The translations under genes were made by a program, and so were the position numbers. The notes beneath the pieces were generated by a model. The model did not search any database and was not told the DNA's origin. It saw only the letters and a list, made by a program, of their open reading frames with translations. From assembly GCA_965205095.1 (NCBI GenBank), contig OZ242040.1, forward strand, positions 2,855,362 through 2,919,361: a stretch of DNA of 64,000 nucleotides, written 5' to 3'. Positions 11,465 to 33,359 of this stretch are shown one piece after another (position 1 is the stretch's first letter; every line of letters starts with the position of its first letter). The DNA is from Candidatus Multivorans sp. (GTDB lineage: Bacteria; Acidobacteriota; Thermoanaerobaculia; Multivoradales; Multivoraceae).

Positions 11465-11492
11465 GCCGCCAGCTACCGGCTGCGCCGCGGTC

Positions 11493-11550
11493 CACTGGGT
11501 GCGCCGGCGCCCCCGCCGGCTCTCTGAGGAACACGCGCCGCGAAGCGGCG
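11493..11550. repeat. REP-like repeat copy C (inverted orientation) between pspC and glcD
   Basis: cactgggtgcgccggcgcccccgccggc ... cgccgcgaagcggcg. Confidence 0.7.
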
Positions 11551-11590
11551 GCAGCACTCCGGCTCCGCTGGGTTGGTAGGCTGACTGCCC

Positions 11591-13048: not shown

Positions 13049-13088
13049 GGCGCGGCGGCGCGGTCAACAACGGAGGGGCGGAAGACTC

Positions 13089-14210
13089 GTGACCGGCATC
13101 GTCCATCAGCCGGGTTCGGCGGCCGAGGTTGCCGAGGCCGTACGCGGTGCGGAGTTGGTCGTTCCGCGGTGCGGCGGAACGAAGCCTGCGCTGTCGGCGG
13201 TGGACGGCGCCGAAGTGCTCGACCTGTCGGCTCTCACCGGCATCACCGAGTACCTGCCGAGCGAGTACACGGTGACGGCCCTGGCCGGCACGCCGCTCGC
13301 CGATGTCGAGGCGCGGCTCGCTGCCGAGGGCCAGTACTTGCCGTTCGATCCGTTGCTGGTCGACGCCGGCAGCACGATCGGCGGCGCCGTGGCTGCGGGG
13401 GCCAACGGCCCCGGCCGGCTGCGCTACGGCGGGCTGCGTGACTTCCTGCTCGCGGTGACCTTCGTCGACGGCCGGGGCGAGATCGTCCGCGGCGGCGCCA
13501 AGGTGGTCAAGAACGCCGCCGGCTTCGATCTTCCCAAGCTCATGGTCGGCAGCCTGGGTCGCCTGGGCGTTCTCACGGAGTGCACGTTCAAGGTCTTTCC
13601 GCACCCGGAGAGTTGCGCCACCGTGCGCGTCGCCGGCAAGACGCTGGACGAGGCCCTCGAGGCCGCCGCCCGCGTTGGGTCCGGCGCGGTCGAGCTGGAG
13701 TGTCTGGACCTGGTGCACGGTCTGGCCGGCTGGGACCTGGAGATTCGCATCGGCGGCCGCAGCTTCGCCCTGGACGCTCGGTTGAAGCGGGTCGCCGATC
13801 TTCTCGACACGGACGTCACCACTCTCTCGGGAGATGGCGACGCCACGCACTGGCGCAGCCGCCGCGAGTTCGGCTGGGCTCCGCCGGACGCCTCCGTCCT
13901 CAAGCTCCCCCTGACGCCGGCCACGGCGGCCGTCCTGGAACAGGTCCTGGCCGACCTCGACGCTTCCCACGTAGCCAGGGTCTACAGCGCCGGCATCCAG
14001 CAGGCTTTCGTCGCCTGGCCCGCTGAACGCGCAGCCGACCTGCCATCCCTCGACCGCGCCTTGACTGCGGCGAAACTGACAGCGCTCGCGCTGCGCGCAC
14101 CGGTCGCCGCAGCAAGCCAGCCGATCCTCGGTTACCGCACCGGCGGCGAGCTGCTACGCCGCGTCGAGCAAGCCCTCGACCCGGCCGGCCGCTTCGGCCG
14201 CCTGGGCTGA
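13089..14210 (+). CDS. glcE: glycolate oxidase FAD-binding subunit GlcE
   Basis: 373 aa with an FAD-binding PCMH-type domain, directly downstream of glcD. GTG start. No glcF follows. Confidence 0.7.
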   Translation: MTGIVHQPGSAAEVAEAVRGAELVVPRCGGTKPALSAVDGAEVLDLSALTGITEYLPSEYTVTALAGTPLADVEARLAAEGQYLPFDPLLVDAGSTIGGAVAAGANGPGRLRYGGLRDFLLAVTFVDGRGEIVRGGAKVVKNAAGFDLPKLMVGSLGRLGVLTECTFKVFPHPESCATVRVAGKTLDEALEAAARVGSGAVELECLDLVHGLAGWDLEIRIGGRSFALDARLKRVADLLDTDVTTLSGDGDATHWRSRREFGWAPPDASVLKLPLTPATAAVLEQVLADLDASHVARVYSAGIQQAFVAWPAERAADLPSLDRALTAAKLTALALRAPVAAASQPILGYRTGGELLRRVEQALDPAGRFGRLG

Positions 14211-14249
14211 ACCTTTCAATCTGCCGGCTCCCAACCTTTCAATCTGCCG
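14210..14249. repeat. tandem 17-bp direct repeat AACCTTTCAATCTGCCG x2 with 23-bp period
   Basis: Exact copies at 14210-14226 and 14233-14249, immediately after the glcE stop. Confidence 0.8.
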
Positions 14250-14311
14250 ACGGCCGGCCTGGGACGCCACGGACGCCCGGGTAGAATCGACAGCGCCAGG
14301 GATCGCTTGCG

Positions 14312-14326
14312 ACCTAGACGCTAGGT
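14312..14326. promoter_or_regulatory. perfect inverted repeat ACCTAG-acg-CTAGGT abutting the MNT start codon (putative operator)
   Basis: The palindrome at 14312-14326 ends 1 nt before the ATG at 14327. Confidence 0.4.
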
Positions 14327-14671
14327 ATGCGGACCATGCTCACCCTCGACTCGAGAGAACAGACTTGGCTTGACGGGTACAGGCGGGCCCTGAAGCGCGA
14401 ACACGCCGACGCCGTGCTGCGCCTGGTCGTGTACGGCTCCAAGGCGCGCGGCGACTCGCATGACGAGAGCGACCTCGATCTCCTCCTCATCGTCGATGAC
14501 TCCGCCTCCGACATGAAGAAGGCTCTCCGCCGCATCGGCCACGAATTGGCTGCCCCCCTGATTGTTCTGCCGTCCATCATGGCCTACACCGAAGGAGAGT
14601 GGAACCAGCTCGAGCGCTACCGTTCGGCCTACCATGCCGCCGCTGAGCGCGAAGGCGTCGCGGTACTTTGA
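14327..14671 (+). CDS. minimal nucleotidyltransferase (MNT / Pol-beta superfamily, MntA-like)
   Basis: 114 aa with GSKARGDSHDESDLDLLLIV, the GS-x9-DxD nucleotidyltransferase motif. Confidence 0.6.
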   Translation: MRTMLTLDSREQTWLDGYRRALKREHADAVLRLVVYGSKARGDSHDESDLDLLLIVDDSASDMKKALRRIGHELAAPLIVLPSIMAYTEGEWNQLERYRSAYHAAAEREGVAVL

Positions 14672-14774
14672 ACAGGACAAGGGGCTGCCTCGGCCAGCTG
14701 CTGTGACGGGCGCGTAGCGTCAAGGGAAGTTGACGTTTGAACGTCGCCGGTAAGCTGGCTGCTAGTGTTCCCGC

Positions 14775-14918
14775 ATGAGTCGGGCGCTTGGTAACGATCC
14801 GGCTGCGGCCGCGGACTTGGAGCGTCTGCCGACGCGAGCGGATCTCTGGAAGGTGGGGGTCGGCGTCGTAGCGGCCAACGTAGCGCTCACGGCCGTGATG
14901 ATCCGGCTGTGGGTCTGA
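14775..14918 (+). CDS. small ORF (47 aa) with hydrophobic C-terminal segment
   Basis: ATG at 14775 is the first start after an in-frame stop. The product ends ...VGVGVVAANVALTAVMIRLWV. Its TGA stop is followed by 3 nt and then the GTG of the next ORF. Confidence 0.2.
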   Translation: MSRALGNDPAAAADLERLPTRADLWKVGVGVVAANVALTAVMIRLWV

Positions 14919-14921
14919 TCG

Positions 14922-15251
14922 GTGGTCGTCGGCGCTTCTTTGGAACGGACACTGAAGATGGATGTCAAAGAGGCGGTAAGAAGGGCCAAGCGGTACCTCG
15001 GGGAGATCTTCTCCGGTGAGAAGATCACCCACGTGGGCCTCGAAGAGGTCGTCTTCGACGACGCGGCGAACTGCTGGAAGATCACCTTGGGGTTCTTTCG
15101 CCCATGGGATCTGGATATGGAGCAGACTCTTGTGAATCCTCTGGCCCGGATCGACAGTCACTCGCGGAGGACGTACAAGATCGTCCAGATCGACGACGAC
15201 AGCGGCAAAGCCGTGTCAATCACGAACCGCCGCCCGTCTACCGCTGCTTGA
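14922..15251 (+). CDS. hypothetical PepSY-like alpha+beta protein (putative partner of downstream PIN)
   Basis: The track ORF starts at a GTG at 14922. An alternative ATG lies at 14958. The helix + beta-strand pattern (EKITHVGLEEVVFDDAANCWKITLGF ... RRTYKIVQIDDDSGKAVSITN) resembles the PepSY fold. There is no signal peptide. Confidence 0.4.
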   Translation: MVVGASLERTLKMDVKEAVRRAKRYLGEIFSGEKITHVGLEEVVFDDAANCWKITLGFFRPWDLDMEQTLVNPLARIDSHSRRTYKIVQIDDDSGKAVSITNRRPSTAA

Positions 15252-15254
15252 GTC

Positions 15255-15716
15255 GTGCCGGCAGCAGCGTTCTTCGTCGACGCCAACCTCCTCGTGCTCT
15301 TCGTGGCCGGCATCGTCGATGAGACGCTGATCGGGAAACATCGCCGACTGCGCGAGTTCTCCGTGGCCGACTACGAGAGGCTGCGTGATCTGATCGCGCG
15401 CGTGGAGCGAGTTCTGGTGACGCCGAACACACTCACCGAAGCGTCCAATCTGCTCGGACAGCACCGCGAACCGGAACGCTCGCGCCTCCTGGACGGACTT
15501 CAGTACGTCATCGAGGGGAGCCGGGAGATCGTCGTTGCGAGCGCTGAAGCGGCACAGAGCCCCGTCTTTCGGCGCTTGGGATTAACCGACGCGGCGTTGT
15601 TCGAAGGGGCGACGGCCGAGCGGCCGCTACTGACCGTTGACCTCGACCTGTACCTGGCGGTTTGCTCAAGAGATGCGGCAGCGGTCGAGAACTTCAACTA
15701 CTCCCGCGATCTGTGA
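15255..15716 (+). CDS. PIN-domain nuclease (VapC-like)
   Basis: 153 aa with FFVDANLLV (Asp9), TEASNLL, LTDAAL and TVDLDLY acidic motifs. The GTG start lies 3 nt after the upstream stop. Confidence 0.6.
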   Translation: MPAAAFFVDANLLVLFVAGIVDETLIGKHRRLREFSVADYERLRDLIARVERVLVTPNTLTEASNLLGQHREPERSRLLDGLQYVIEGSREIVVASAEAAQSPVFRRLGLTDAALFEGATAERPLLTVDLDLYLAVCSRDAAAVENFNYSRDL

Positions 15717-15823
15717 TCCAGAGGCTGAACCGTCTCGTCAAGCGCCCGAAGCTCCATCTCGCGGATAGCGGCGTTGGCGTGACTCGGGCTTCGGCCTGCT
15801 GTTTCGCGGCTTGGGGGTGATCT

Positions 15824-16000
15824 CTACGTCTTGGGCGAGGCTGTCGCAAGCAGCAGCGCCTCCCAGCCTTTGGCCAGGTCTTCCTGGATCAAGGCGTTGC
15901 GCTCGCTCGACAGCTTCACCAGGGAGATCGTCTGTTTCCCGAGCGCGAGGAACTGGGCCATGTTGAGCGCCGTCGGGTTCCAGCCATAGGGCCCAGGAAG
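15824..16000 (-). other. short orphan frame (57 codons: LPGPYGWNPTALNMAQFLALGKQTISLVKLSSERNALIQEDLAKGWEALLLATASPKT*), possibly a gene remnant
   Basis: Manual translation. It is bounded upstream by an in-frame TAG. It has no obvious family. Confidence 0.15.
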
Positions 16001-16070
16001 CTAGAGGCGAGCGTTCACTGGGACCCCGCCCGGCTCCTCGGCGAGCGGGTCCAGGTACGGCACCGCCGCC

Positions 16071-17507
16071 TCAGCTCGCCTTCGGCAGAGCCCCCATCAC
16101 GGCCTTGACCTCCAGGAACTCCTCGAAGCCGAAGTCGCCCCATTCGCGGCCGTTGCCGGACTGCTTGTAGCCGCCGAAGGGGGCGCCGAAGTCGGCGGGG
16201 GCGCCGTTGATGTGGACGTTGCCGGCGCGAATGCGCGAAGCGACGCTGCGGGCGTGGTCGAGGTCGCCGGACTGGACGTAGCTCGACAGGCCGTACGGCG
16301 TGTCGTTGGCGATCCGGATCGCTTCCTCCTCGGTCTGGTAGGGGAGGATGGAGAGCACCGGGCCGAAGATCTCCTCCTGGGCGATCGTCATGTCGTTGCT
16401 CACGCCGCCGAAGACGGTGGGGCGGACGTAGTAGCCGCTGTCCATGCCTTCGGGGCGGTCCGTGCCGCCGGTGACGAGTTCGGCGCCCTCTTCGACGCCC
16501 TTGGCGATCAGGGCCTGGATCTTGTCGTACTGGACCTTGCTGACGACCGGGCCGATGGCTACGCCTTCCTGTCCCGGCGGGCCGACGGCGGTCGCTTCGG
16601 CGGCCGCCTTGGCGACCTCGAGCGCACGGGCGTGCGAGGCCGCCGGCACGAGCATCCGCGTGGGCGCGTTGCAGGACTGGCCGCTGTTCAGGAAGCACTG
16701 GCGGGTGCCGGCCTTGACCGCCTTGTCGATGTCCGCGTCCTCGAGGACGATGTTCGGCGACTTGCCGCCGAGTTCCTGGGCGACGCGCTTGATCGAGTCG
16801 GCGGCGGCCTTGGCGACGGCGCGGCCGGCCCGCGTCGAGCCGGTGAAGGACATCATGTCGATGCCCGGGTGACCCGACAGCGCGGCGCCGACCTCGGGGC
16901 CTTCGCCGTTGATCAGGTTGAAGACGCCCGGCGGAACGCCCGCGTCGTGGAGGATCTCGGCGAGCAGGATCGCGTTGAGCGGCGCCACCTCGCTCGGCTT
17001 GAGCACCATCGTGCAGCCCGCGGCGAGCGCCGGCGCGACCTTGCAGGCGATCTGGTTGATCGGCCAGTTCCACGGCGTGATCAGACCGCAGACGCCGACC
17101 GGTTCCTTGACGATGTTCGTCGTGCCGCGGGTCTCGACGAAGTCGTAGTCCTTCAGCACGTTCAGGGCGCCGGCGAAGTGGCCGAGGCCTGAGGGCGCCT
17201 GGGCGGCCTTGGCGAGCCAGGCCGGGGCGCCCATCTCCATCGAGATCGTCTCCGCCATCTCGCCGATCCGGGCCTGGTAACCGGCGACGATCCGGCCCAG
17301 GAGCTCGACCCGCTCTTCCTGACTGGTCCGGGAGAAGGACTCGAAGGCGGCCTGTGCCGCCGCGACGGCCTTGTCGACGTCCGCCGCGCTGCCGAGGCTG
17401 ATCCGGCCGATCGCCTCTTCCGTCGACGGATCGATCACGTCCATCGTCTTTGGGGTCGCCGGGTCGACCCACTCACCGTTGATGTAGAACTGCAGCGCTT
17501 CCTTCAT
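16071..17507 (-). CDS. NAD(P)-dependent aldehyde dehydrogenase
   Basis: ATG at 17505-17507 (MKEALQFYINGEWV...). ALDH signatures include ELGGKSP and a catalytic Cys region. The N-terminal 35 aa of the track ORF were rejected. Confidence 0.85.
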   Translation of the reverse strand: MKEALQFYINGEWVDPATPKTMDVIDPSTEEAIGRISLGSAADVDKAVAAAQAAFESFSRTSQEERVELLGRIVAGYQARIGEMAETISMEMGAPAWLAKAAQAPSGLGHFAGALNVLKDYDFVETRGTTNIVKEPVGVCGLITPWNWPINQIACKVAPALAAGCTMVLKPSEVAPLNAILLAEILHDAGVPPGVFNLINGEGPEVGAALSGHPGIDMMSFTGSTRAGRAVAKAAADSIKRVAQELGGKSPNIVLEDADIDKAVKAGTRQCFLNSGQSCNAPTRMLVPAASHARALEVAKAAAEATAVGPPGQEGVAIGPVVSKVQYDKIQALIAKGVEEGAELVTGGTDRPEGMDSGYYVRPTVFGGVSNDMTIAQEEIFGPVLSILPYQTEEEAIRIANDTPYGLSSYVQSGDLDHARSVASRIRAGNVHINGAPADFGAPFGGYKQSGNGREWGDFGFEEFLEVKAVMGALPKAS

Positions 17508-17630
17508 GGGACTGTCTCCGAGGGGTGTTGTTTGCCGGGACGGGTGAGTGTAGCGGTATGCACGATGGTGCTTACCTCGAACTCTCCTTGAGAAGTCGTA
17601 CTCGCGGCACATCTTGCCGGGTTCAACGTA

Positions 17631-19043
17631 TCAATGCACGCGGTTGGTGGCGAGCAGCCATTGCGCTGCTTGCTCCCCGCACTCGGCGCCGACGGCGATC
17701 GCCCGGCTCAGGCCGACGCCGTGGAGCGCGTTGCCGGCCAGGCAGAAGCCGTCGATCGGGTCCAGGGCGGCCTCGATTCGGGCCACTCGCCGCGGGTGAC
17801 CGGGGGCGTACTGCGGGATGGCGTGCGGCCAGCGGGCGACGCTCGTGTAGGTCGGCTCGGCGTCCAGGCCTACAGTTCGGCGTAGCTCCCGGAGAGTCAG
17901 CTCGACGAGCTGAGCGTCGCCGAGGTCGGCAGCCTCGGGGTCTACGCTGCCGCCGAACATCGAGCGGGTCAGGAACGTGCCTTCGGGGCCGCGGCCGCGG
18001 AAGGTAGCGGTCTCGTACTGGCAGCCGAGCATGCGGATGCCCTCGCCGCGGGCGACGAGGAAGCCGTAAGCCGGCTCGATGTGGTCCGCGGCCGCGGCGT
18101 CGAACGCGGTGTGGACGACGGCCATCGGCGGCAATTCGATCTGCCGGAGTTCGTCGGCGGCCCCTGCCGAGACGCCGTCGACGAGATCGGCGGCCGAAGG
18201 CAGGTCGGCCGCGACGATGACTGCATCTCCAGTGACTTCGCCGCCGGAAGAAGCGACCCTGAAGCCGCTGCCGCGCCGTTCGATCGCGGTGACCCGCCGG
18301 TTGCAGCGGACTTCGATTCCCGGCAGGCCTGCGACGGCCTGCGGAAGGGCCTGAATGCCGCGGCAAAAGGTCCGGTGCCCCGGCGGCGGAACGCCGCGCC
18401 TGCGGCCGGCGCGCATCGCCTTGAACAGGGAACCGTAGGCCCGTTCCATCGCGACCAGGCGCGGGAACGCGGCCGCCGCCGAGAGCTTCCGCGCGTCGCC
18501 CGCGAAGATGCCGAGGACGACGGGCGAGATGAGGCGGCGGGCCGCCTGCCGGCCCATGCGCCGGGCGGCAAAGTCGTACAGCGACTCGTCTTCGCCGTCG
18601 CTGCCTTCCGCATCGCCGTCGTGCCGACTCCGCACCAGGGGTTCCATCGCCAGTCTCGCCAGGCCGAGCGGTCCCAGCAGGCCGCTCTTCGCGAAAGCCA
18701 ATGGGCTGCGCTGCAACTCCCGCAGCCTGCCGCCCCGGTAGATGTAGCGGCGGTTCGCGGCCGGTTCGGGCGCCAGCACTTCGTCCTCGAGGACGCACGC
18801 CTCGACCATCTCCCGTACGACCGGCTGATCGTCGAGGAAACTCTGGGGGCCGGTCTCGATCAGGAAGCCGCCGGCCTGCTCGGTCCGCGCCTTGCCTCCG
18901 ACTTCGCCGTCCGCCTCGAGCACGAGGATCTCGATCTCGCCGCCGGCGCGCTCCGCCTCGACCGACGCCTTCCAGGCGGCGGCCAGTCCGGAAGGCCCGC
19001 CGCCGACGACAACCAGGCGACGGGCCGACGGCTGTTCGCTCAA
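17631..19043 (-). CDS. hemY: oxygen-dependent protoporphyrinogen oxidase (FAD)
   Basis: C-terminal ~470 aa of ORF 17631..19427. VVVGGGPSGLAAAW is the dinucleotide-binding motif and PPOX family blocks are present. The TTG start overlaps the hemE TGA (TTGA at 19040-19043). Confidence 0.75.
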   Translation of the reverse strand: MSEQPSARRLVVVGGGPSGLAAAWKASVEAERAGGEIEILVLEADGEVGGKARTEQAGGFLIETGPQSFLDDQPVVREMVEACVLEDEVLAPEPAANRRYIYRGGRLRELQRSPLAFAKSGLLGPLGLARLAMEPLVRSRHDGDAEGSDGEDESLYDFAARRMGRQAARRLISPVVLGIFAGDARKLSAAAAFPRLVAMERAYGSLFKAMRAGRRRGVPPPGHRTFCRGIQALPQAVAGLPGIEVRCNRRVTAIERRGSGFRVASSGGEVTGDAVIVAADLPSAADLVDGVSAGAADELRQIELPPMAVVHTAFDAAAADHIEPAYGFLVARGEGIRMLGCQYETATFRGRGPEGTFLTRSMFGGSVDPEAADLGDAQLVELTLRELRRTVGLDAEPTYTSVARWPHAIPQYAPGHPRRVARIEAALDPIDGFCLAGNALHGVGLSRAIAVGAECGEQAAQWLLATNRVH

Positions 19044-20134
19044 GCGTCCTCCGCCTCGGCGTGGACGGACTCGACCAGGGCCTGCACCGCCTGAAGCGGA
19101 GTCTCCGGCAGCACGCCGTGTCCCAGGTTCACGATGTGGCCAGGTCGCGGCAAGCTGGCGAGCAGGAGTCCGGTCTCGCGCCGGACCGCCTGTTCGCCGG
19201 CCAGGAGTGCGGCGGGGTCCAGGTTGCCCTGCAGGCAGAGGTCCGGCCGCCGCCGCCGGAGCGCTCCGAGGTCGGTGCGCCAGTCGACGCCGAGCGCCTC
19301 GCAGGGCAGGCCGGCGTAGTCGTCGACCAACTGGGGTGCGGCGTGGAGGAAGAGGATGCGGGGGACGCCGGCGTCGCCGAGCCGCCGGAGCAGCCGATCG
19401 AGGTGCGGCCGAATCCTCTGTCGCCATTCGGCGCGCGGGAAGAGACCGGCCCAGGAATCGAAGACCTGTACCGCGTCGGCGCCGGCCCGGTGCTGGCCGA
19501 GGAGATAGCGGGCGCAGAGCCGTCCCAGGCGGTCGAGCAGGGCGTCAAATGCCGCCGGCTCCTGGTAGGCGAACGCCCGCAGCCGCGGGAAGTCGCGGAC
19601 GCCGCGGCCCTCGACCAGGTAGGCCGCGAGGGTCAACGGAGCGCCCGCGAAGCCGAGGAGCGCCGTCTCCGGGACGAGCTCGGACCGGACGATCCGCTGG
19701 GCGGCCGCGACCTCCGGGGCGATCGCGGCCTCGTCGAGGTCGTCGGGATCGGGCAGGGCGGCGACGTCCCGCGCGCTGCGGATCGGCTCGGCGATCACCG
19801 GCCCCGGATCGAAGCGGAAGTCGACACCGAGGGCCGGCATGGGCGACATGATGTCCGCGAACGTGATCGCGGCGTCGAAGGGGAAGCGCCGGAGCGGCAT
19901 CAGGGTGACTTCGGCCGCCAGTTCCGGGTCGCGCGCGAGGCCGGCGAAGCCGTGGCGCTCCTTGAGTGCCCGGTACTCGGGCAGGATGCGTCCGGCCTGA
20001 CGCATCATCCACAGCGGCCGTCGCGGCGTGTCCTCGAATCGAAGGGCGCGCAGCAGCAGGGGTTCGGCCGGCGGGGCGGTGGCGGCGGCCGGGGCGGCAG
20101 CAGGCCCGGCCGCGGTCGTCGGCAGGGTGTTCAC
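19040..20134 (-). CDS. hemE: uroporphyrinogen decarboxylase
   Basis: URO-D signatures (PLWMMRQAGRILPEY...). The putative GTG start at 20132-20134 overlaps the hemA TGA (GTGA). The upstream part of the track ORF was rejected. Confidence 0.8.
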   Translation of the reverse strand: MNTLPTTAAGPAAAPAAATAPPAEPLLLRALRFEDTPRRPLWMMRQAGRILPEYRALKERHGFAGLARDPELAAEVTLMPLRRFPFDAAITFADIMSPMPALGVDFRFDPGPVIAEPIRSARDVAALPDPDDLDEAAIAPEVAAAQRIVRSELVPETALLGFAGAPLTLAAYLVEGRGVRDFPRLRAFAYQEPAAFDALLDRLGRLCARYLLGQHRAGADAVQVFDSWAGLFPRAEWRQRIRPHLDRLLRRLGDAGVPRILFLHAAPQLVDDYAGLPCEALGVDWRTDLGALRRRRPDLCLQGNLDPAALLAGEQAVRRETGLLLASLPRPGHIVNLGHGVLPETPLQAVQALVESVHAEAEDA

Positions 20135-21489
20135 TCGCCGGCCGTCCAGCGGGTCGATGGCTCGGAGGGCCTGTCGGCGCGCCGCTGTTCGAGCAGCTCC
20201 GGCGCCGCCGCGGCAAGGAAGGCGTCGACGCCGTCCTGACCGATCTCGATCGCCACCGCGCGCAGCCCCACGACCGGCAGGTGGCTCAGACGCTTCGCCA
20301 TCACGGCGGTCCACTCCCGGAGCGCTTCCCGTTCCGCCTCCGAGAGGCCCGCGAGATCGCCCTGCAGCAGGCGGTCCAGGTTGGCGCCCAGGGAATCCTG
20401 GTACTTGGCGCCGATCGCCCGGATCGCGCCGGCGACGGACCTGGTGGCCATTGCTTCGCGGTAGGCGTCGAGTTCCTCGTCGATCAGCACGCGGGCATCG
20501 GCGGTGCGCCCGCGCCGGTCGCGGAGGGTCTTCTGGGCCAGTTCATTGATCTGGTCCATGCCGATCCGCTTCAGACCCGCGACGCGGGCGTCGGCTGGAG
20601 CGACATCGGCCGGGATCGCCATGTCGATCACCAGCGGTGAGGCGCCGTACCGGGCGTCGCCGGCCGCGGCCAGGACCGACAGGCACCGCCGATCGACCAC
20701 CGGCCCCGGGGCGCCGGTCGAGAAAAGTGCCGCGGTCACCGGCGGCGGCTCGGACCGGAACCAGTCGAGGCTCATCGTTTCGACGGTCTTTGCGGATCCG
20801 TTCGCCGCGGTCGTGCCGCCCGTTCTTTCGGCAAGGTCGTCGGCCTTCGAGCGGGTGCGGTTGACCAGGACCAGGGGGATTCCGCGGGAGTGCAGCCGTT
20901 CCGTACACGTCTCGGTCATCGCCGCGACGCCGACCAGCGCCACCGGCCCCGGATGCTCCGCGGCGCGCTCGGTCAACAGGTCGGCCGCGATCTCCGACAG
21001 CGACGTGCGCCCGGCGCCGACCCCGGTCTCCCGGTGTACCCGCTTGCCGGCCCGAAGCGCCGATTCGACCACGCGCCGCAACTCCGGGTCGACCGTGCCG
21101 CTGGCCGTCGCCTCCTCCAGCGCGTCGCGCAACTGGCCGCGGATCTCCCGCTCTCCAGGCTGGGCCGAGTCGAGGCCGGCCGCTACCAGGTACAGGTGCT
21201 CGACCGCGCCTTCCCCTTCCCAGCTCCGGAAGACTCGCCGCGCCGCCCCCTCGCCGGCCACCAGCCGCAACAGCTCCCGCCGGCACGAGGCCAAGGTAGC
21301 TCCGGGCTCGGCCGAGAAGGCGAACGCCACCCGGTTGCACGTGGCGAGATAGATCAGCCCCTGAGCGCCGATCCGCTGCTTCAGCCGCCGCATCTCGGCG
21401 GCCCGCCGCTCATCCGGCACGGTGTACTGCGCGATCTCCTCGGCGCTCGCGTACCGCCAGGTCACCGCCACGACGCAACAGTTGTCCAT
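20131..21489 (-). CDS. hemA: glutamyl-tRNA reductase
   Basis: ATG at 21487-21489 (MDNCCVVAVTWRYA...). It has the LATCNRV signature and an NADPH-binding domain. Confidence 0.85.
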   Translation of the reverse strand: MDNCCVVAVTWRYASAEEIAQYTVPDERRAAEMRRLKQRIGAQGLIYLATCNRVAFAFSAEPGATLASCRRELLRLVAGEGAARRVFRSWEGEGAVEHLYLVAAGLDSAQPGEREIRGQLRDALEEATASGTVDPELRRVVESALRAGKRVHRETGVGAGRTSLSEIAADLLTERAAEHPGPVALVGVAAMTETCTERLHSRGIPLVLVNRTRSKADDLAERTGGTTAANGSAKTVETMSLDWFRSEPPPVTAALFSTGAPGPVVDRRCLSVLAAAGDARYGASPLVIDMAIPADVAPADARVAGLKRIGMDQINELAQKTLRDRRGRTADARVLIDEELDAYREAMATRSVAGAIRAIGAKYQDSLGANLDRLLQGDLAGLSEAEREALREWTAVMAKRLSHLPVVGLRAVAIEIGQDGVDAFLAAAAPELLEQRRADRPSEPSTRWTAGE

Positions 21490-21523
21490 CGGGCGATTCT
21501 GACCTAGTGGGACGCCTGGATTG

Positions 21524-22660
21524 TCACGGTTGTGTCGGCGTCGACGGTCCACTCTCGCGCACGCCGCATCTCGGCGGCACGTCTGATGCCGGCGGGGGCG
21601 CCGGCGCACCCAGTGTTCGCCACTCGCGGGTGTTGCGGAGGATCAGGTCGGTCAGCGCGTCGAGATGGTCGGGGCGGTCGTTGAGGCAGGGGATGTAACG
21701 AAGGCGCTCGCCGCCGGACTCCTCGAAGTAGCCGCGATTCTCGACCTCGATCTCTTCGAGCGTCTCGATGCAGTCGGCGGAGAAGCCGGGACAGGCGACG
21801 TCGACGTTCCCGAGGCCGGCCTCGGGCAGCTCGCGCATCGTGGCATCCGTCTTCGGGCCGATCCACAACTCGCGGCCGAACTGGGACTGGAAGGTGCTGA
21901 CCACCCGTTCCTCGTCGACGCCGAGCTCCCGGACCAGCAGGCGCGTGGTCTCCAGGCACTGGCACTGGTACGGGTCGCCGTTGTCGATGTAGCGCTGCGG
22001 CACGCCATGGTAGGAGAGGACGAGCCGGTCGGGCTCTCCGTCGCTCCAGGTTTCGCGGATGCTCGCGGCGAGCGAGCGCAGGAAGCCGGGGTCGTCGTAG
22101 TAGCTGTTGATCGTCCGCAGTTCGGGCACCCAACGCCAGCGGCCGAGTTGCCGGGCGAGCATGTCGATCGTGGACGCCGTGGTGGCGGCCGAGTACTGCG
22201 GGAAGAGCGGGAAGAACAGGAGGCGCGTGCATCCCCTGTTGCGGAGTTCCGCGAGCGCGTTTCCGATCGACGGTTCGCCGTAGCGCATCCCGAGGGCGAC
22301 ATGGAACGGGGGACCGCTTTCGCCCTGCTGCTGCCGTAGCCTCGCGGCGATGCCCTCGACCTGGCGTTTGCCGATCGCGAGGAGCGGCGAGCCCTCGTCG
22401 GTCCAGATCTTCTCGTAGAGCTTCGCGACCCGCTGGGGCCGCGTCGTCAGCACGAACAGGTAGAGGATCGGCAGCCACTTCCAGCGCGGCACCTCGGCGA
22501 TGCGGGTGTCGCTCAGGAACTGCCGGAGGTAGCGGCGCAGGGCCCCCGCCGTGGGCGCCGCGGGGGTGCCGACGTTGGCGAGCAGGACGCCGATGGCGCC
22601 GCGGTCCACGGAGGCGTCGACGCGCGGTTCGGGTTCGTAGAGGGATGTGCCGCTGGTCAT
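21524..22660 (-). CDS. hemH: ferrochelatase
   Basis: 378 aa with ferrochelatase blocks throughout. The last ~30 codons (LGAPAPPPASDVPPRCGVRESGPSTPTQP) are a translation of a REP-like repeat copy. Confidence 0.85.
   Translation of the reverse strand: MTSGTSLYEPEPRVDASVDRGAIGVLLANVGTPAAPTAGALRRYLRQFLSDTRIAEVPRWKWLPILYLFVLTTRPQRVAKLYEKIWTDEGSPLLAIGKRQVEGIAARLRQQQGESGPPFHVALGMRYGEPSIGNALAELRNRGCTRLLFFPLFPQYSAATTASTIDMLARQLGRWRWVPELRTINSYYDDPGFLRSLAASIRETWSDGEPDRLVLSYHGVPQRYIDNGDPYQCQCLETTRLLVRELGVDEERVVSTFQSQFGRELWIGPKTDATMRELPEAGLGNVDVACPGFSADCIETLEEIEVENRGYFEESGGERLRYIPCLNDRPDHLDALTDLILRNTREWRTLGAPAPPPASDVPPRCGVRESGPSTPTQP
21560..21615. repeat. REP-like GC-rich repeat copy D (module GATGCCGGCGGGGGCGCCGGCGCACCCAGTG), embedded in the 3' end of hemH
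   Basis: Shares the GCGCCGGCGCACCCAGTG core with copies at 1970-1997, 2778-2793, 11493-11520, 37224-37252 and 41185-41215. Confidence 0.7.
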
Positions 22661-22670
22661 GCGGTGTCGG

Positions 22671-23675
22671 TCAGATCCAGTCGCGGCGGACCAGGAAGTC
22701 GGAGGAGAGGCGGGCTTCGGGGGTTCCGGGTTCGGGCGCGTAGTCGTAGCGCCACGCCGCCAGCGGCGGCAGGGACGCCAGGATCGACTCGGTTCGGGCC
22801 CTCGCCTGGAGTCCGTAGCGCGTGCCGCGGTCGTACACCAGGTTGAACTCCACGTAGCGCCCCCTGCGGTAGAGCTGGAAGTCGCGCTCGCGCTCGCCGT
22901 AGGAAAGACCCCTGCGGCGCTCCAGGATCGGCAGGTAGGCGGGCAGGAAGTGGTCGCCGACGCTGCGGGCGAAGGAGAAGCAGCGTTCGAAGCGGCTGAG
23001 TTCGGCCGGTCGTTCGAGCCGGTTCAGATCGTCGAAGAAGAGACCGCCGACGCCGCGCATCTCCTGCCGGTGGGGAAGGTAGAAGTAGTCGTCGCAGGCG
23101 GCCTTGTAGCGGGCGTAGAGGTCGTCGCCGTAAGGCGCGCAGGCCTCGGCCGCGGTGCGGTGCCAGTGAACCGCGTCCTCCTCGAAGCCGTAGTAGGGGG
23201 TCAGATCGAAGCCGCCGCCGAACCACCAGCCCTCCTCGTCCGCATGGGCGGCGCCCTGGGGTTCGGCGTCCGCGGGCGGATGCGCGATGAAGAAGCGGAT
23301 GTTGGCGTGGCTCGTCGGTGCGTACGGGTTGCGCGGGTGCACGATCAGGGACACGGAGGTCGCCTCGAAGGAACGCCCCGCCAGTTCCGGCCGCCGCTCG
23401 GTCGCGGCGAGGGGCAGGGAGTCGCCGCGTGAATGGCTGAAGTTCACGGCGGCCTTCTCGATCACGGGGCCGTCGGTCAGCACCCTGGGCCGGGCGCATC
23501 CGCCCCGCTCGTTCGTCAACTCGCGGGCGTCGAACGGGGTGCCGTCGATCTCGACCAGTGCGTTGCAGATGCCGTCCTGCAGGCCGCGGAAGTAGGCGGC
23601 AACCGCGCCGGCGTCGTTCTGCGGTTCCCCGGCCGCCGTCGACTGGTCGGCGCTCGTACCGGAAGCGGGACTCAC
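22671..23675 (-). CDS. hemF: oxygen-dependent coproporphyrinogen III oxidase
   Basis: HemF blocks ([21 protein letters not shown]...). In-frame GTG at 23675-23673 overlaps the hemL TGA (GTGA). The N-terminal 200 codons of the track ORF were rejected. Confidence 0.8.
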
Positions 23676-24970
23676 GGCGCCGGAATCTCCGCCAGGGCTT
23701 CGCCGACCGCCGTGGCGAAAGCGCCGAGCGTCTCCTCGTCGTGGGCGAGGGAAAGGAAGCCGACCTCGAACGCGGACGGGGCGAGCATGTAGCCGCGGTC
23801 GAGCAGCCCGCGGTGGAGGAGGCCGAAGACCTCGGCCGTGTTCGGGTGGAAGCGGTCGGCCCGGCGCGGCGGTTCGCCGTCGCCGTACGCGAGCCAGAAG
23901 ATCGACCCGCAGCGGACGAGCCGGTAGGGGTGGCCGCTCGTTTCGAGGACGGGGCCGAGCTCGCGGTCGAGGAGCGCGCCCTGGTCTTCCATCCGCTTCC
24001 ATCCATCGCCGGCCGCGAGTTCGCGCAGGGTGGCGAGTCCGCCGGCGACGGCGAGCGGGTTCCCGGACAACGTGCCCGCCTGGTAGACGGGGCCGAGCGG
24101 CGAAAGCCGGTCCATCAGCCGCGCCGGGCCGCCGTAGGCGCCGACCGGCAGTCCGCCGCCGATCACCTTGCCGAGCGTGACGAGATCGGGCTCGATGCCG
24201 AGCTGAGCGCCGACGGTGACTCCGGGGACCCGGAAGCCGCTCAACACTTCGTCGAAGATCAGCAGTGCGCCGTGCTCGGTGCACAGGCGGCGCAGGAGTT
24301 GCAGATAGCCCCGCCGCTGCACCAGGAGGCCGTTGTTCGCCGGCAGCGGCTCGATGATCGTGGCCGCCAGGTTGTCCCCGTGGCGCCGGAAGGCCTCCTT
24401 CAGCGCCTCCTCGTCGTCGAGCGGCAGGACGATCGTGTCGCGCGCGGTCGCCGCCGGGATGCCGGCGCTCGAGGCGATCCCGAAGGTGGCGAGACCGCTT
24501 CCGGCTTCGACCAGCAGGGCGTCGACGTGGCCGTGGTAGCAGCCTTCGAACTTGAGCACCAGGTCGCGGCCGGTACAGCCGCGGGCGAGCCGGACCGCCG
24601 ACTGGGTCGCCTCGGTGCCGGAGTTGACGAACCGGATCTTCTCGATGACCGGCACGAGTTCCTTGACCATCCGCGCCAGCTCAACCTCGCCCTCGTGGGG
24701 CGCGGCGAAGGACGTGCCGCGCGCTGCCGCCTCGCACACCGCCTCGACCACGGCCGGGTGGCTGTGTCCCAGCACCAGGGGCCCGAAGGAGCCGACGAAG
24801 TCGACGTAGCTCCTGCCGTCGACCGAGCGCATGACCGCCCCTTCGGCCTCGGCGATGAAGGGCGGCGTGCCGCCGACCGCGCGGTATGCCCGCACCGGAC
24901 TGTTCACGCCGCCGACCAGGTGGCGCTGCGCCTCCACCCAGAGGTCTTCACTGCTTCGTCCGGCGCTCAT
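23672..24970 (-). CDS. hemL: glutamate-1-semialdehyde 2,1-aminomutase
   Basis: 432 aa, class-III aminotransferase with a GSA-AT signature. Its ATG overlaps the hemC-hemD fusion stop (ATGA). Confidence 0.9.
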
Positions 24971-26856
24971 TCAGTCCCCCTCGGGTCCGCGTCCGCTTCG
25001 TCGAGCCACAGGCGTTCGATGCCGGCGGCGGTCGGTTCCTCTGCGCACTTCACGTTGCCGGCTCCGGCGCTGCGGAGCGCCGCGGCTGTGGCGGCTCCGA
25101 TCGCCCAGCAGCTTCCCGGCCAGTCCAGGCCGGACGCTGCGAAGGCGGAAACCGCCGATGGAGCCGTGAAGAGTACGCGGGCGTGGGCCGCTTGCCAACC
25201 TTGCGGCCAGTCGAGTGCGTCGTTCGGATGCACGGTGTAGGCCGCCCAGGCAGTGACCTGGCGGCCGGCCGCCTGGAGCGCCTCGACGAGCGACGCTCCG
25301 CCGCGGGCGGAATGCGGCACGAACAGCGGGCAACGCGGGTCGAGCACCCGGGCCGCGTAGCCGGCAAGGTCCCGGCCGCCGGAGGCCCGCGCGGCCAGGT
25401 TCGGCGGCACGCCGGCCGCGAGCAGCGCGCGGGCGGTCCCTTCGCCCAGCGCGCACCACGGCAGCCGGCCCCAGACCGGCTCGCGCGCGGCGCGCTCCGC
25501 GACGACGCACGCGGCGTTCGGCGAGGAGACGAGCAGCCACGGCCACTGGCGTCGCGGACGGTCCAGGTCGATACGGTCCGCCGGCCAGGGGGTGTCGAAG
25601 ATCTCGACGGTGGTCGCCGGCAGAGCGGCGACGCCCACGCCTGGAGGCAGCCGCCTCGTCAGGCGCCGAACAGTCGTCGGGCCGGAAGTCACGATGAGGT
25701 CCGGCGTCGGATCGGTAGGACGCTCCTCACTGGGTGCGCCGGCGCCCTCGCCGGCCGCCGCCGCAGGCGGCTTCGAGAACGCGCCGGCCGTCAGGCCGGC
25801 ACCGAACTCCGCCAGACCCCGCTCAATCCGCTCCGCCAACGCGTCAAGATCGATGCCCCCGGCTCGGTCAGCGATCGAGACCGCTGCGCCGACGGCAGCC
25901 GGCGCCTCCCCGACCGCGGCCGCCTCCCGCCACTCATCGGGTGCGATCAGGGCATGGACCTCACGCAGTACGACCTCTTCCGCCTCCCCCTCGCCGGCGT
26001 CCGCCCAAGCCCCGAAAGGCCGCAGACAGCCACCCCCCAACCGGCCGAGCAGGGCACGCTCGGCGAAGGCCGCCGCCCGGCTCGGAGAGTGGTCGAGCGC
26101 CGCCATTGCCGCATGGCCATCCAGCCGCCCGCCGCGCAGGACCTGCACCGCGAGGGCGCCCTGGCCGGGAGCGCATGGCCAGGAGCGAAGGTCCAGCCGG
26201 AAACCGCGGATGGCGCCGGCTGAAGCTTCCAGCTCGCCGTTTCGCGCCAGGCGCAGGACGCCCGCTTCCGCCGCCAGCAGGGCGTCGATCGCGCCGCTCC
26301 GGAGCCACTCGAGCCGGCGTCCCACCGAGCCGCGGACGGCGCAGCAGACGAGGTCCGGCCGCAGAGCCAGCGCCCCGGCCTGCCGGCGTGGCGACGAGGT
26401 GCCCAGGCGCGCGCCGACCGAGAGCGGCGCGAACGCCGCGGCCGCCGGCCTGGTCTGCTTCTCCAGGGCGTCGTCGCCGTGATCGATCAGCTCCGCGAGC
26501 GTCGGCGCCCCTTCGCTCGCCTCGTTCGCTTCGTCGCCCGGCGCGAACAGCAGCAGATCGAACGGTCGCTCCCGCTCCGGCACCGCCGCGATCACCAGGT
26601 CCCGCTCGTCCTCCACCGGCAGGTCCTTCAGCGAGTGGACGACGAGATCCACGGAGCCGTCGCGCAGGGCCGCGGTCAGCTCGCCGGTGAATACGCCCTT
26701 GGCCTGGGCGAAACTGCCGCCGAGGCTGCGGTCGCCCTGGGAAGACATGGCTCGCACTGCCGTGTCCACGCCGAGCTCGCCGAGCCGCCGGGCGACCAGG
26801 TCGGCCTGAATCCGCGCCAGTGGCGTTGCCCTGGTGCCGATGACGATCGGGGCCAT
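24967..26856 (-). CDS. hemCD: bifunctional hydroxymethylbilane synthase / uroporphyrinogen-III synthase (HemC-HemD fusion)
   Basis: Single 629-aa ORF. The N-terminal ~330 aa is porphobilinogen deaminase (IVIGTRATPLARIQA..., cofactor Cys in GGGCLRPFGAWA). The C-terminal ~250 aa carries HemD blocks (LLVSSPNA..., VLFTAPSAV). Confidence 0.8.
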   Translation of the reverse strand: MAPIVIGTRATPLARIQADLVARRLGELGVDTAVRAMSSQGDRSLGGSFAQAKGVFTGELTAALRDGSVDLVVHSLKDLPVEDERDLVIAAVPERERPFDLLLFAPGDEANEASEGAPTLAELIDHGDDALEKQTRPAAAAFAPLSVGARLGTSSPRRQAGALALRPDLVCCAVRGSVGRRLEWLRSGAIDALLAAEAGVLRLARNGELEASAGAIRGFRLDLRSWPCAPGQGALAVQVLRGGRLDGHAAMAALDHSPSRAAAFAERALLGRLGGGCLRPFGAWADAGEGEAEEVVLREVHALIAPDEWREAAAVGEAPAAVGAAVSIADRAGGIDLDALAERIERGLAEFGAGLTAGAFSKPPAAAAGEGAGAPSEERPTDPTPDLIVTSGPTTVRRLTRRLPPGVGVAALPATTVEIFDTPWPADRIDLDRPRRQWPWLLVSSPNAACVVAERAAREPVWGRLPWCALGEGTARALLAAGVPPNLAARASGGRDLAGYAARVLDPRCPLFVPHSARGGASLVEALQAAGRQVTAWAAYTVHPNDALDWPQGWQAAHARVLFTAPSAVSAFAASGLDWPGSCWAIGAATAAALRSAGAGNVKCAEEPTAAGIERLWLDEADADPRGTE

Positions 26857-26902
26857 CGGACCGGGATTCTATGGAGCCGCGCTCCGGCGTGCCGGCGCGG
26901 AG

Positions 26903-26973
26903 CCCTGGAATAGAGTCGATACTCGGTCCCGCCGTTGGCCGCCTGGAGCCGATTGGGGCCTGGAACCGATAGG
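26903..26973. repeat. three direct repeats CCTGGA-n3-GAT-like (cctggaatagagtcgat / cctggagccgattgg / cctggaaccgatagg) in the hemCD-ACE divergent intergenic region
   Basis: Seen at 26903-26920, 26942-26956 and 26959-26973. Confidence 0.5.
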
Positions 26974-26984
26974 GAGGACTCGCC

Positions 26985-28820
26985 GTGTCGCTGATTCCGC
27001 TTCGAACCCGAGCAATTCCTGTTTACCTGGGCCCCTTCTGCCTGCTCCTGGCCGCTACCGCGGCCGTCCTGCTTGCCGGCTGCGCCGGCGAAGCACGGCC
27101 GACGGCGGCCGAGTTCACGGCAGCGGCCGAGGAGACGCTCATGGAGCACTACTACGACGGCAGCCGCGCGGCCTGGGTGCAATCGACGTACATCAACGAG
27201 GACACGACCGCCCTGGCGGCCCGTGCCGGAGCGGAGGCGCTGACCCGCGCGATCGACTTCGCGCAGGAGGCGGCGACCTACGACGCGGCGTTGGAGGCGG
27301 ACGAGGTGGCGCGCAAGCTCAACCTGCTTCGCGGCGGACTGACCGTGGCCGCGCCCGCTGACGAGGCGAAGATCGAGGAACTGAGCCAGATCACGACCAG
27401 GATGGAAGCGGCCTACGGCACCGGCAGGCACTGTCCGAGCGGGCCGGATTCCTGCCGTTCGCTCGACGATCTGGAGGACGTGATCGACAACAGCCGGGAC
27501 GCTGCCGCTCTGCTCGACGCCTGGGAGGGCTGGCGCACGATCTCGCCGCCGATGCGCGCGGACTACCAGCGCTTCGTCGAGCTTTCGAACGAGGGCGCCC
27601 GGGGCCTCGGCTACGACGACACCGGCGCGATGTGGCGGTCGGGCTACGACATGCCGCCGAACGACTTCGCCGCGGAGACGGACCGTCTCTGGGAGCAGGT
27701 GAAGCCGCTCTACGACGATCTGCACTGCCACGTCCGCGCCGAACTCGCGGAGCAGTACGGTCCGGACGTCGTGGATCCCGAGGGCGCCATCCCGGCGCAC
27801 GTTCTCGGCAACATGTGGGCGCAGACGTGGTCCAACGTGTTCGACCTCGTCGCGCCGCAGACGGCCGATCCCGGATACGACCTGACGGAGATTCTCCGCG
27901 AGCGTCAGACGTCGGAGCGGGAGATGGTCGAGATCGCCGAGGGCTTCTTCACCTCGCTCGGGATGGAAGAGCTTCCCGACACCTTCTGGCGGCGCTCCCA
28001 GTTCCTCCGGCCCCGAGACCGCGATGTCGTCTGTCACGCGAGCGCCTGGCAGCTCGACCTGGACGAGGACGTCCGGATCAAGATGTGCATCCAGATCAAC
28101 GCCGAGGATTTCTCGACGATCCACCATGAACTCGGCCACACCTACTACCAGCTCGGCTACCGGGAGCTGCCGCCCCTGTTCCGGGACAGCGCGAACGACG
28201 GGTTCCACGAGGCGCTGGGCGACACGATTTCCCTGTCCGTCACGCCGGGCTACCTCGTCGACATCGGTCTGCTCGACGAGGAGCCGCCGGCCGAGGCCGA
28301 CCTCTCGCTCCTCATGCGGATGGCGCTGGACAAGGTCGCCTTCCTGCCCTTCGGCCTGCTCGTCGACCGCTGGCGCTGGGGCGTGTTCTCCGGCGAGACG
28401 CCGCCCGAGGAGTACAACGCGGCCTGGTGGCGCCTGCGCGAGCAGTACCAGGGAGTGACCGCTCCATCGACGCGAACGGAGGAGGACTTCGACCCGGGCG
28501 CGAAGTACCACGTGCCGGGCAACACGCCGTACACGCGCTACTTCCTGGCGCACATCCTCCAGTTCCAGTTCCACCGCGACCTGTGCGCGGCGATCGGCTA
28601 CGAAGGTCCGCTCCACCGCTGCTCGATCTACGGCGAGGAAGAGGCGGGCCGTCGCCTGCGCGAGATGATGGCGATGGGTCTGAGCCGGCCGTGGCCCGAG
28701 GCGCTCGAGGCCATGGGCGGCAGCCGGGAGATGGACGCCACGGCGATCCTCGACTACTTCGCCCCGCTCGCCGACTGGCTCAAGGAGCAGAACGCCGGCC
28801 GGTCCTGCGGCTGGAGCTAG
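26985..28820 (+). CDS. peptidyl-dipeptidase A (angiotensin-converting-enzyme homologue, M2 family) lipoprotein
   Basis: 611 aa. The lipobox is LLAGCAG. It has the HHELGHTYY zincin motif plus a downstream HEALGD. M2 family blocks run across the full length. Confidence 0.8.
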   Translation: MSLIPLRTRAIPVYLGPFCLLLAATAAVLLAGCAGEARPTAAEFTAAAEETLMEHYYDGSRAAWVQSTYINEDTTALAARAGAEALTRAIDFAQEAATYDAALEADEVARKLNLLRGGLTVAAPADEAKIEELSQITTRMEAAYGTGRHCPSGPDSCRSLDDLEDVIDNSRDAAALLDAWEGWRTISPPMRADYQRFVELSNEGARGLGYDDTGAMWRSGYDMPPNDFAAETDRLWEQVKPLYDDLHCHVRAELAEQYGPDVVDPEGAIPAHVLGNMWAQTWSNVFDLVAPQTADPGYDLTEILRERQTSEREMVEIAEGFFTSLGMEELPDTFWRRSQFLRPRDRDVVCHASAWQLDLDEDVRIKMCIQINAEDFSTIHHELGHTYYQLGYRELPPLFRDSANDGFHEALGDTISLSVTPGYLVDIGLLDEEPPAEADLSLLMRMALDKVAFLPFGLLVDRWRWGVFSGETPPEEYNAAWWRLREQYQGVTAPSTRTEEDFDPGAKYHVPGNTPYTRYFLAHILQFQFHRDLCAAIGYEGPLHRCSIYGEEEAGRRLREMMAMGLSRPWPEALEAMGGSREMDATAILDYFAPLADWLKEQNAGRSCGWS

Positions 28821-32987: not shown

Positions 32988-33359
32988 CTATGGCGCGTCT
33001 CGCGTGACGAGCCAACGCGTTTCAGTTCTCAACGTCCGCGCGAACCGGCCGCCTTCGGCTTGCAACCGCCGCCACTCGTGGGCCGTGTAGACGAGCAGGT
33101 CTGTCGGCACCGGCAGATTCTCGGTGGGCCACTCGCGGGTCCTCTCCATCGCCGGCCGGTCGTCGGCTTCGACGATCGCTATCAGGTCCAGGTCGCTGCC
33201 GAAGCCCTCGTCACCGCGCGCGTAGGACCCGAAGTAGCCGAGCGCGATCAGGTCGTGGCGTCGTTTGGCTGCTGTTTCGCCCCAATCCTCGAGAACACGG
33301 AGGACGGCGTCAGTGTTCGGCCAGCGCTTGATCGACGAAATCGAAGATGTGACGGGCAT
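32988..33359 (-). CDS. minimal nucleotidyltransferase (MNT), cognate of upstream HEPN
   Basis: ATG at 33357-33359 (MPVTSS...). GSYARGDEGFGSDLDLIAIV is the nucleotidyltransferase motif. Its 5' end overlaps the HEPN 3' end by ~50 nt in a different frame. Confidence 0.6.
   Translation of the reverse strand: MPVTSSISSIKRWPNTDAVLRVLEDWGETAAKRRHDLIALGYFGSYARGDEGFGSDLDLIAIVEADDRPAMERTREWPTENLPVPTDLLVYTAHEWRRLQAEGGRFARTLRTETRWLVTRDAP

Follow-up and report, generated by a model that had tools for sequence, protein, structure and literature searches.

We describe a heme biosynthesis cluster in a 64-kb stretch of DNA (hereafter, the window) from an organism close to Candidatus Multivorans (Acidobacteriota; Thermoanaerobaculia; Ca. 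Multivoradales). From position 17631 to position 26856 on the minus strand, the genes hemCD, hemL, hemF, hemH, hemA, hemE and hemY lie contiguously and in the same direction, as seen in open reading frame (ORF) calls and in Pfam and NCBIfam matches, and the first of them encodes HemC and HemD in a single polypeptide. These genes very probably constitute a lineage-conserved operon, whose seven polypeptides would provide eight enzyme activities of the O2-dependent, protoporphyrin-dependent heme pathway. Seven genes of one pathway in a contiguous, co-directional row far exceed what chance would give, and relatives keep the arrangement. The first-pass annotation of this DNA had proposed a contiguous seven-gene cluster on the minus strand, and all of its ORFs are found where it had placed them, with Pfam and NCBIfam confirming their identity. 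In cluster order, the genes are:

24967..26856, minus strand: hemCD, a single ORF of 629 amino acids (aa), with matches to PF01379 (1.5e-45), PF03900 and PF02602 (3.3e-19), in that order
23672..24970, minus strand: hemL, glutamate-1-semialdehyde 2,1-aminomutase (NF000818, 535 bits against a cut-off of 398)
22671..23675, minus strand: hemF, O2-dependent coproporphyrinogen III oxidase (NF003727, 387.2 bits against 297)
21524..22660, minus strand: hemH, ferrochelatase (TIGR00109, 290 bits against 125)
20131..21489, minus strand: hemA, glutamyl-tRNA reductase (GluTR), with the three GluTR Pfam domains
19040..20134, minus strand: hemE, uroporphyrinogen decarboxylase (TIGR01464, 333 bits against 303)
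17631..19043, minus strand: hemY, protoporphyrinogen oxidase of the PgoX type (TIGR00562, 231 bits against 98)

Read from the sequence, the spacers between these genes are, in cluster order, -4, -4, 10, 34, -4 and -4 nucleotides (nt). The ATG of hemL lies on the stop codon of hemCD (ATGA), an overlap that recurs in the comparison loci L001, L002 and L081. The GTG of hemF is placed in the same way on the stop of hemL (GTGA), the GTG of hemE on the stop of hemA (GTGA), and the TTG of hemY on the stop of hemE (TTGA), this last start being preceded by GGAGGA. Only the hemF/hemH and hemH/hemA junctions do not overlap, with spacers of 10 and 34 nt, respectively. The hemF gene corresponds to the C-terminal 334 codons of a longer ORF (22671-24284). 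The GTG and TTG codons at 23675, 20134 and 19043 are the predicted starts of their genes for three reasons: every other in-frame start would either cut into the Pfam domain or run 180-600 nt into the upstream gene; a gene caller based on codon-usage log-odds, with other genes of the window as its training set, independently chose the same sites; and the same four overlaps are kept in two related genomes. The ATGA, GTGA, GTGA and TTGA junctions proposed in the first-pass annotation are thereby upheld by the sequence, by the gene caller and by the two relatives. Overlaps of 4 nt are the typical style of this genome, since four other same-strand gene pairs in the window share them.

For comparison, we used 80 loci from a scan of genome contigs with generic HemC peptide patterns, a set made up mostly of ordinary hemC genes, in which only L001 and L002 are close to the window. 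They come from the genomes closest by HemCD, namely Candidatus Multivorans thiocomprendens (L001, 85% identity) and 'Holophagales bacterium' SB0667_bin_1 (L002, 79%). We found no paper in the literature that mentions Ca. Multivorans thiocomprendens. Both loci have an order identical to that of the window, with a divergent M2 peptidase gene, then hemCD-hemL-hemF-hemH-hemA-hemE-hemY, and then an aldehyde dehydrogenase gene. Protein identity to the window is 74-96%, and all four 4-nt overlaps are kept; the heme clusters of these two genomes differ from that of the window at the sequence level only, mainly in the length of the linker and of an insertion in HemC (see below). The identities of the genes, the continuity of their frames, and the conservation of their order and overlaps are direct observations. 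At a larger distance, L082 (Thermoanaerobaculia, 46% identical) carries hemCD-hemF-hemH-hemA-hemE-hemY at 10001-17810, with hemL not in the cluster. At each of its five junctions a candidate start gives a 4-nt overlap with the upstream stop (TTGA once and then GTGA four times), and in two cases the stored gene calls begin past that stop instead. In L081, a divergent hemB adjoins hemCD-hemL-hemA. We also considered whether the cluster is a horizontally acquired island, and this was ruled out: the window has a GC content of ~70% throughout, the cluster (GC 0.70-0.735) shows no compositional break from its flanks, and synteny with relatives extends to the flanking genes. Scans of the whole window with Rfam (at gathering thresholds) and for tRNA genes gave no match, and thus no riboswitch or other RNA element tied to the cluster.

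The seven genes have the features of a single operon: they are co-directional, their spacers are short or negative, and terminator-like hairpins are no more frequent among them than chance predicts (three found versus 4.0 expected). We infer that a single transcript runs over all seven genes. Stop/start overlaps of 4 nt typically mark translationally coupled genes. The candidate signals for transcription are the following:

26857..26984, no strand assigned: intergenic region of 128 nt between hemCD and the M2 peptidase gene, the presumed divergent promoter region
26866..26871, minus strand: TAGAAT, a -10-like hexamer and candidate hemCD promoter, at -15 to -10 from the ATG, 9 nt upstream
21496..21501, minus strand: CAGAAT, a possible weak internal promoter, speculative, at -12 to -7 from the hemA ATG, in the 34-nt hemH/hemA gap
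26866-26871, 1924-1945, 2707-2728, 11139-11160 and 45533-45552, window-wide: examples of TAnnnT hexamers near start codons

Upstream of hemCD, the window, L001 and L002 share 88% identity over the intergenic region, whose TAGAAT is invariant in both relatives. No Shine-Dalgarno sequence is seen before the hemCD ATG. Most likely, the hemCD mRNA is leaderless and starts from the TAGAAT box, to which we assign a putative promoter role. We propose this because TAnnnT hexamers near start codons are enriched across the window, and hemCD fits the pattern: of the 38 window genes with an upstream gap of at least 30 nt, nine have a TAnnnT starting between -19 and -11, against a background of 0.67% (p=3.5e-12), which suggests that leaderless or near-leaderless mRNAs are frequent in this acidobacterial genome. 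In the nine genes the hexamer lies 7-10 nt before the start codon, usually without a Shine-Dalgarno sequence. The promoter proposal rests on the enrichment test because a scan for consensus sigma-70 promoters in the window found none.

That negative scan weighs against our reading of a single transcript beginning at hemCD, and so does the hemH/hemA gap, where the conserved CAGAAT could be an internal promoter. The cluster would then comprise two or more units, for example hemCD-hemL-hemF-hemH and hemA-hemE-hemY, with a second leaderless mRNA starting from the gap. There, L001 and L002 share GTCAGAATCGCC(C/T)GATG with the window, and L002 diverges over the remainder of the gap; the motif resembles TAGAATCCCGGTCCGATG before hemCD, and -10 hexamers close to start codons are enriched in this genome. 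Furthermore, the coupling breaks exactly at the two non-overlapping junctions, and hemA, the first committed gene of the pathway, is frequently under separate regulation. However, CAGAAT departs from the -10 consensus at its first position, where a T is expected, and lies 1-3 nt nearer to the ATG than the hexamers of the nine clear TAnnnT cases. The 34-nt gap is without a terminator, and the corresponding junction of L082 has a candidate GTG that forms a 4-nt overlap with the hemH stop (the stored call, in contrast, begins 3 nt past it). An internal promoter would in any case supplement read-through and not replace it. We consider a division into separate units unlikely, and we favor one operon of seven genes.

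The late genes of the operon indicate which branch of the pathway it serves. The closest solved relative of HemY is Myxococcus xanthus PgoX (2IVD, 5.9e-65), ahead of Bacillus subtilis CgoX (3.5e-49). Residues R95, F329 and L332 of M. xanthus PgoX (MxPgoX) are conserved in PgoX proteins, with small residues in their place in CgoX (PMC10740692). At these positions our alignment shows Arg, Tyr and Leu in HemY, versus Ser, Thr and Val in B. subtilis CgoX, and we judged HemY to be of the PgoX type. For HemH, the closest solved relatives are the human protoporphyrin ferrochelatases (PpfC), which match residues 23-342, whereas coproporphyrin ferrochelatases (CpfC) cover residues 90-343 only. Pfam scans of every called gene detected no gene for ChdC (Chlor_dismutase family), HemN or HemB within the window. 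The cluster most likely serves the classical O2-dependent, protoporphyrin-dependent branch, because it encodes HemF, a PgoX-like HemY and a PpfC-like HemH, and because there is no ChdC or HemN gene in the window.

Several observations weigh against this interpretation. The operon does not encode HemB, and a tblastn search with two HemB sequences did not find hemB in the cluster or anywhere in the window. HemA falls short of the NCBIfam equivalog cut-offs (172.3 versus 209.55 for TIGR01035, 183.3 versus 429 for NF000744) and is 25-30% identical to other acidobacterial HemA proteins. Nevertheless, its Pfam domains are each above their cut-offs (PF05201, PF01488 and PF00745, with 93.1, 35.8 and 34.6 bits), and it aligns to the Methanopyrus GluTR (1GPJ, 7.6e-23) with the Cys of TCNR at the active-site position, so that both the domain set and the catalytic Cys are present. 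HemA is a divergent member of the glutamyl-tRNA reductases. Finally, the residue of HemY at the position of MxPgoX F329 is a Tyr, bulky and aromatic but not a Phe.

This Tyr would also fit the idea that the late genes serve the coproporphyrin-dependent (CPD) pathway, with HemY acting as a CgoX, HemH as a CpfC, ChdC encoded elsewhere, and HemF as an accessory enzyme. The CPD pathway is encoded by three of four analysed Acidobacteria (PMC10740692), and HemQ has been reported to occur in Acidobacteria in the literature. Against it stand the location of hemF inside the operon, where it would be translationally coupled, the better match of HemY to PgoX than to CgoX and its Arg and Leu where CgoX has small residues, the full-length match of HemH to PpfC, which CpfC gives over residues 90-343 only, and the lack of a Chlor_dismutase-family gene in the window. 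We regard the CPD pathway as a very improbable role for this cluster. Since three of four analysed Acidobacteria encode the coproporphyrin route, the protoporphyrin branch, our preferred assignment, is mildly notable here. As a contrasting example of a CPD locus, we had considered a gap in L059 as a site for ChdC; it holds a radical-SAM HemN-like gene instead.

The first-pass annotation had also listed hemB as missing and the late enzymes as O2-dependent. The former holds within the window, by both Pfam scans and tblastn, and the latter agrees with HemF and the PgoX-like HemY. Its statement that the organism is aerobic was sound in part: a 64-kb window can reasonably be read as pointing to an aerobic, or at any rate oxygen-exposed, lifestyle, but the claim was overstated, as hemN was checked in the window only.

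The fusion at the head of the operon consists of the following parts:

25789..26856, minus strand: HemC module, residues 1-356, with all three domains (Foldseek match to 1PDA)
25717..25788, minus strand: linker, residues 357-380, disordered and rich in Ala, Gly and Pro (predicted local distance difference test score, pLDDT, <50)
24970..25716, minus strand: HemD module (uroporphyrinogen III synthase, UROS), residues 381-629 (PF02602, Foldseek)

HemC is N-terminal and HemD C-terminal, in one ORF without a stop. PF01379 covers residues 4-240 (155.8 bits against a cut-off of 22.1), PF03900 gives a weak match at residues 263-295, and PF02602 (HEM4) covers residues 426-612 (69.4 bits against 27.5). 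TIGR00212 scores 180.1 bits on the product against a cut-off of 164, and by these curated cut-offs the protein belongs to the HemC family. We built an AlphaFold2 (AF2) model on 50 homologues, with a mean pLDDT of 88.8 and a predicted template modelling score of 0.89, in which disorder is confined to the linker. The model predicts the expected fold for both modules: Foldseek matches the HemC module to 1PDA with a template modelling (TM) score of 0.82, normalised to the whole target, and the HemD module to 4ES6 and 3P9Z with TM scores of 0.70-0.71, in keeping with the two-domain UROS fold. None of the PDB matches listed by Foldseek covers both modules, so that there is no solved fused enzyme among them. 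The HemC residues R9, K77, D78, R157, R158, R175, R181 and C277 are invariant across the 50 homologues and align to Escherichia coli residues; D78 is the catalytic Asp, the Arg residues are those expected to bind the substrate, and C277 is the cofactor cysteine, located in a GGGC motif in domain 3. The HemD module is divergent, since phmmer found no match to solved UROS sequences at E<=0.01.

Some 110 full-length fused homologues, at 44-100% identity, occur in NCBI, ENA, JGI and Logan assemblies made independently of one another. Around 100 of them, at 63-90% identity, are from Acidobacteriota or 'Holophagales' metagenome-assembled genomes where named, and Thermoanaerobaculia are found in another set, at 44-47% identity. 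The length and sequence of the linker differ among homologues. In most comparison loci hemC and hemD are two neighbouring genes, and a lost stop or a frameshift in sequencing or assembly could turn such a pair into one ORF. This artefact is effectively refuted by the ~110 independently assembled homologues, by the fused ORF in L001, L002, L081 and L082, and by the AF2 model, where a complete HemC domain 3, the linker and an intact UROS fold follow one another with nothing missing. The single polypeptide of 629 aa reported by the first-pass annotation is thus genuine, and we predict that it is bifunctional, with both HemC and HemD activities.

We also observed an insertion between domains 1 and 2 of HemC (residues ~105-145, window positions 26422-26544), which is variable and partly low in complexity. 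It measures ~40 aa in the window protein and up to ~100 aa in P0096, and it is shorter in the Thermoanaerobaculia and archaeal-type proteins. The AF2 model renders it as short helices with pLDDT 84-92.

We propose the following scheme for the operon, in which enzyme activities and channelling are deduced from sequence and predicted structure. Transcription would begin from the TAGAAT box that precedes the hemCD start codon by 9 nt and would yield a leaderless mRNA, on which the four 4-nt overlaps would couple translation from hemCD to hemL to hemF, and from hemA to hemE to hemY. HemA and HemL would convert Glu-tRNA into 5-aminolevulinate, and HemB, encoded elsewhere, would convert this into porphobilinogen. 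Hydroxymethylbilane would then be assembled by the HemC module, on the dipyrromethane cofactor that Cys277 carries. Hydroxymethylbilane is unstable, and its spontaneous closure yields the useless isomer I; therefore, a tethered cosynthase would offer both 1:1 stoichiometry and proximity. The HemD module, tethered in this way, would cyclise hydroxymethylbilane to uroporphyrinogen III before its closure to the dead-end isomer, and HemE, HemF, HemY (PgoX) and HemH would finish protoheme.

We then asked how widespread such fusions are. The 150 best matches out of 1.84 billion cluster representatives include at least 63 distinct clusters of HemC-HemD fusions at 50% identity, with the window clade counted in; of the 55 long proteins outside this clade in the same set, 54 have both domains. 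Across the 80 comparison loci, matched-residue counts had suggested many fusions, an idea that was ruled out by checking for a continuous ORF: a continuous single-ORF fusion occurs only in L001-L004, L007 and L079. We confirmed a single fused ORF in Bryobacteraceae, Prolixibacteraceae and archaeal-labelled contigs. Fusions of HemC and HemD arose in several lineages, as seen from the 63 or more clusters and from their occurrence in several phyla.

The archaeal-labelled contigs, which are marine, deserve separate mention. Their labels read Methanobacteriota archaeon SAT205 and TARA scaffolds, assigned to Methanobacteriota or Thermoplasmatales; they are probably Marine Group II, their archaeal identity being taken from the record titles and from one wyosine-biosynthesis neighbour gene. 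Two of them, L003 (8568-18345) and L083 (8496-18241), carry hemA-hemCD-hemB-hemL-hemE-hemF-hemY-like, with hemH on the opposite strand, and the shorter L084 (967-6285) carries hemA-hemCD-hemB-hemL followed by an unassigned partial gene at the contig end. Few long spurious ORFs are present in L003. These clusters appear to share with the window the HemC-HemD subfamily, and they likewise have HemF and a clustered aerobic pathway, but they include hemB and begin with hemA, whereas the window cluster begins with hemCD and is without hemB. A hidden Markov model from acidobacterial fusions alone gives 137-154 bits to the HemD modules of L003 and L083 and at most 48 bits to every other HemD in 83 loci. 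Likewise, in an exhaustive search of the 1.84 billion representatives, the archaeal-type proteins rank directly after the Thermoanaerobaculia group. HemCD of L003 and L083 shares 29-31% identity with the window protein, and that of L084 shares 41%; the HemE proteins of these contigs are not specially close to the window HemE (33-34%). This pattern suggests a single origin of the fusion subfamily. Tentatively, and with somewhat less than even confidence, we propose that one fusion subfamily is common to marine Thermoanaerobaculia and planktonic archaea, which would point to inter-domain transfer of the fused gene, perhaps with the whole aerobic heme cluster, in either direction.

Around the operon, the window contains the following flanking gene:

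16071..17507, minus strand: aldehyde dehydrogenase gene, 123 nt downstream of hemY, with its own Shine-Dalgarno sequence (PF00171, 3.7e-159)

It holds the same position in L001 and L002 and is probably not part of the heme pathway. On the other side, the divergent neighbour in all three genomes is a full-length, angiotensin-converting-enzyme-like M2 peptidase (26985-28820, plus strand; PF01401, 2.3e-221). On the strand of the operon, 4.4 kb upstream of it, there is a ferritin-like gene (PF00210, 31231-31758, minus strand). GltX makes Glu-tRNA, the substrate of HemA; gltX and glnS are found at 38611-40056 (plus) and 41234-42937 (minus), 12-16 kb from the heme operon, with no linkage implied. 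Elsewhere in the window we noted a bacterial homologue of GPP34 (Golgi phosphoprotein 3; 2005-2706, minus; PF05719, 1.5e-44); trehalose genes at 2795-6836, where a GH15/trehalase-like gene and otsB overlap by 4 nt on the minus strand and otsA is divergent; and a gene for a 4Fe-4S dicluster protein with a weak reductive-dehalogenase match (6866-8074, plus), which adjoins a molybdopterin oxidoreductase gene (8169-9260). A HEPN and minimal-nucleotidyltransferase pair, toxin-antitoxin-like, occurs together with two solitary nucleotidyltransferase genes (32988-33699, minus; 14327-14671, plus; 40551-41045, minus). The stretch at 14-16 kb has a lower GC content (0.64) and several ORFs without a family match.

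The value of these results lies mainly in annotation: a poorly studied acidobacterial order near Ca. Multivorans would make heme by the O2-dependent protoporphyrin route. In addition, this natural and well-conserved fusion with a confident model could be used in channelling studies of the unstable hydroxymethylbilane or in engineering of the heme pathway. Wider evolutionary interest comes solely from the link to the archaeal-labelled clusters, and no new biological question is opened.

This type of fusion and the clustering of heme genes are already known and common, with multi-gene heme clusters present across many phyla, and the operon is not exceptional in either respect. Heme genes had been described in the first-pass annotation as scattered in most bacteria, which is too strong: hemA adjoins hemC in most of the 80 comparison loci, and five or six heme genes lie together in loci from Myxococcales, Rubricoccaceae, Bacteroidota and another Acidobacteriota. 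The same annotation had likened the organisation to that of spirochaetes such as Leptospira. As far as the papers that cite the original work describe it, the HemC/HemD fusion of Leptospira is bifunctional and belongs to a heme cluster, hemACBLENG (Guegan et al. 2003). To this extent the resemblance stands, both organisms having the two activities on one polypeptide and most heme genes in one co-directional cluster. In these same accounts, however, the Leptospira cluster includes hemB and the oxygen-independent HemN, whereas that of the window is without hemB and has HemF, and the gene order differs. The organism itself is not spirochaete-like, Leptospira being a spirochaete and the window coming from a high-GC, Ca. 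Multivoradales-like member of the Thermoanaerobaculia (Acidobacteriota). Another familiar arrangement is that of Bacillus-type genomes, with hemAXCDBL and hemEHY operons, in which the late genes, as in Firmicutes, belong to the coproporphyrin-dependent route. These operons and the hemA-hemC(-hemD) pairs of most Acidobacteriota resemble the window in that early heme genes are co-transcribed and hemC adjoins hemD. In both, however, hemC and hemD are separate ORFs, and early and late genes lie in different operons, whereas in the window hemC and hemD are fused and early and late genes share one cluster.

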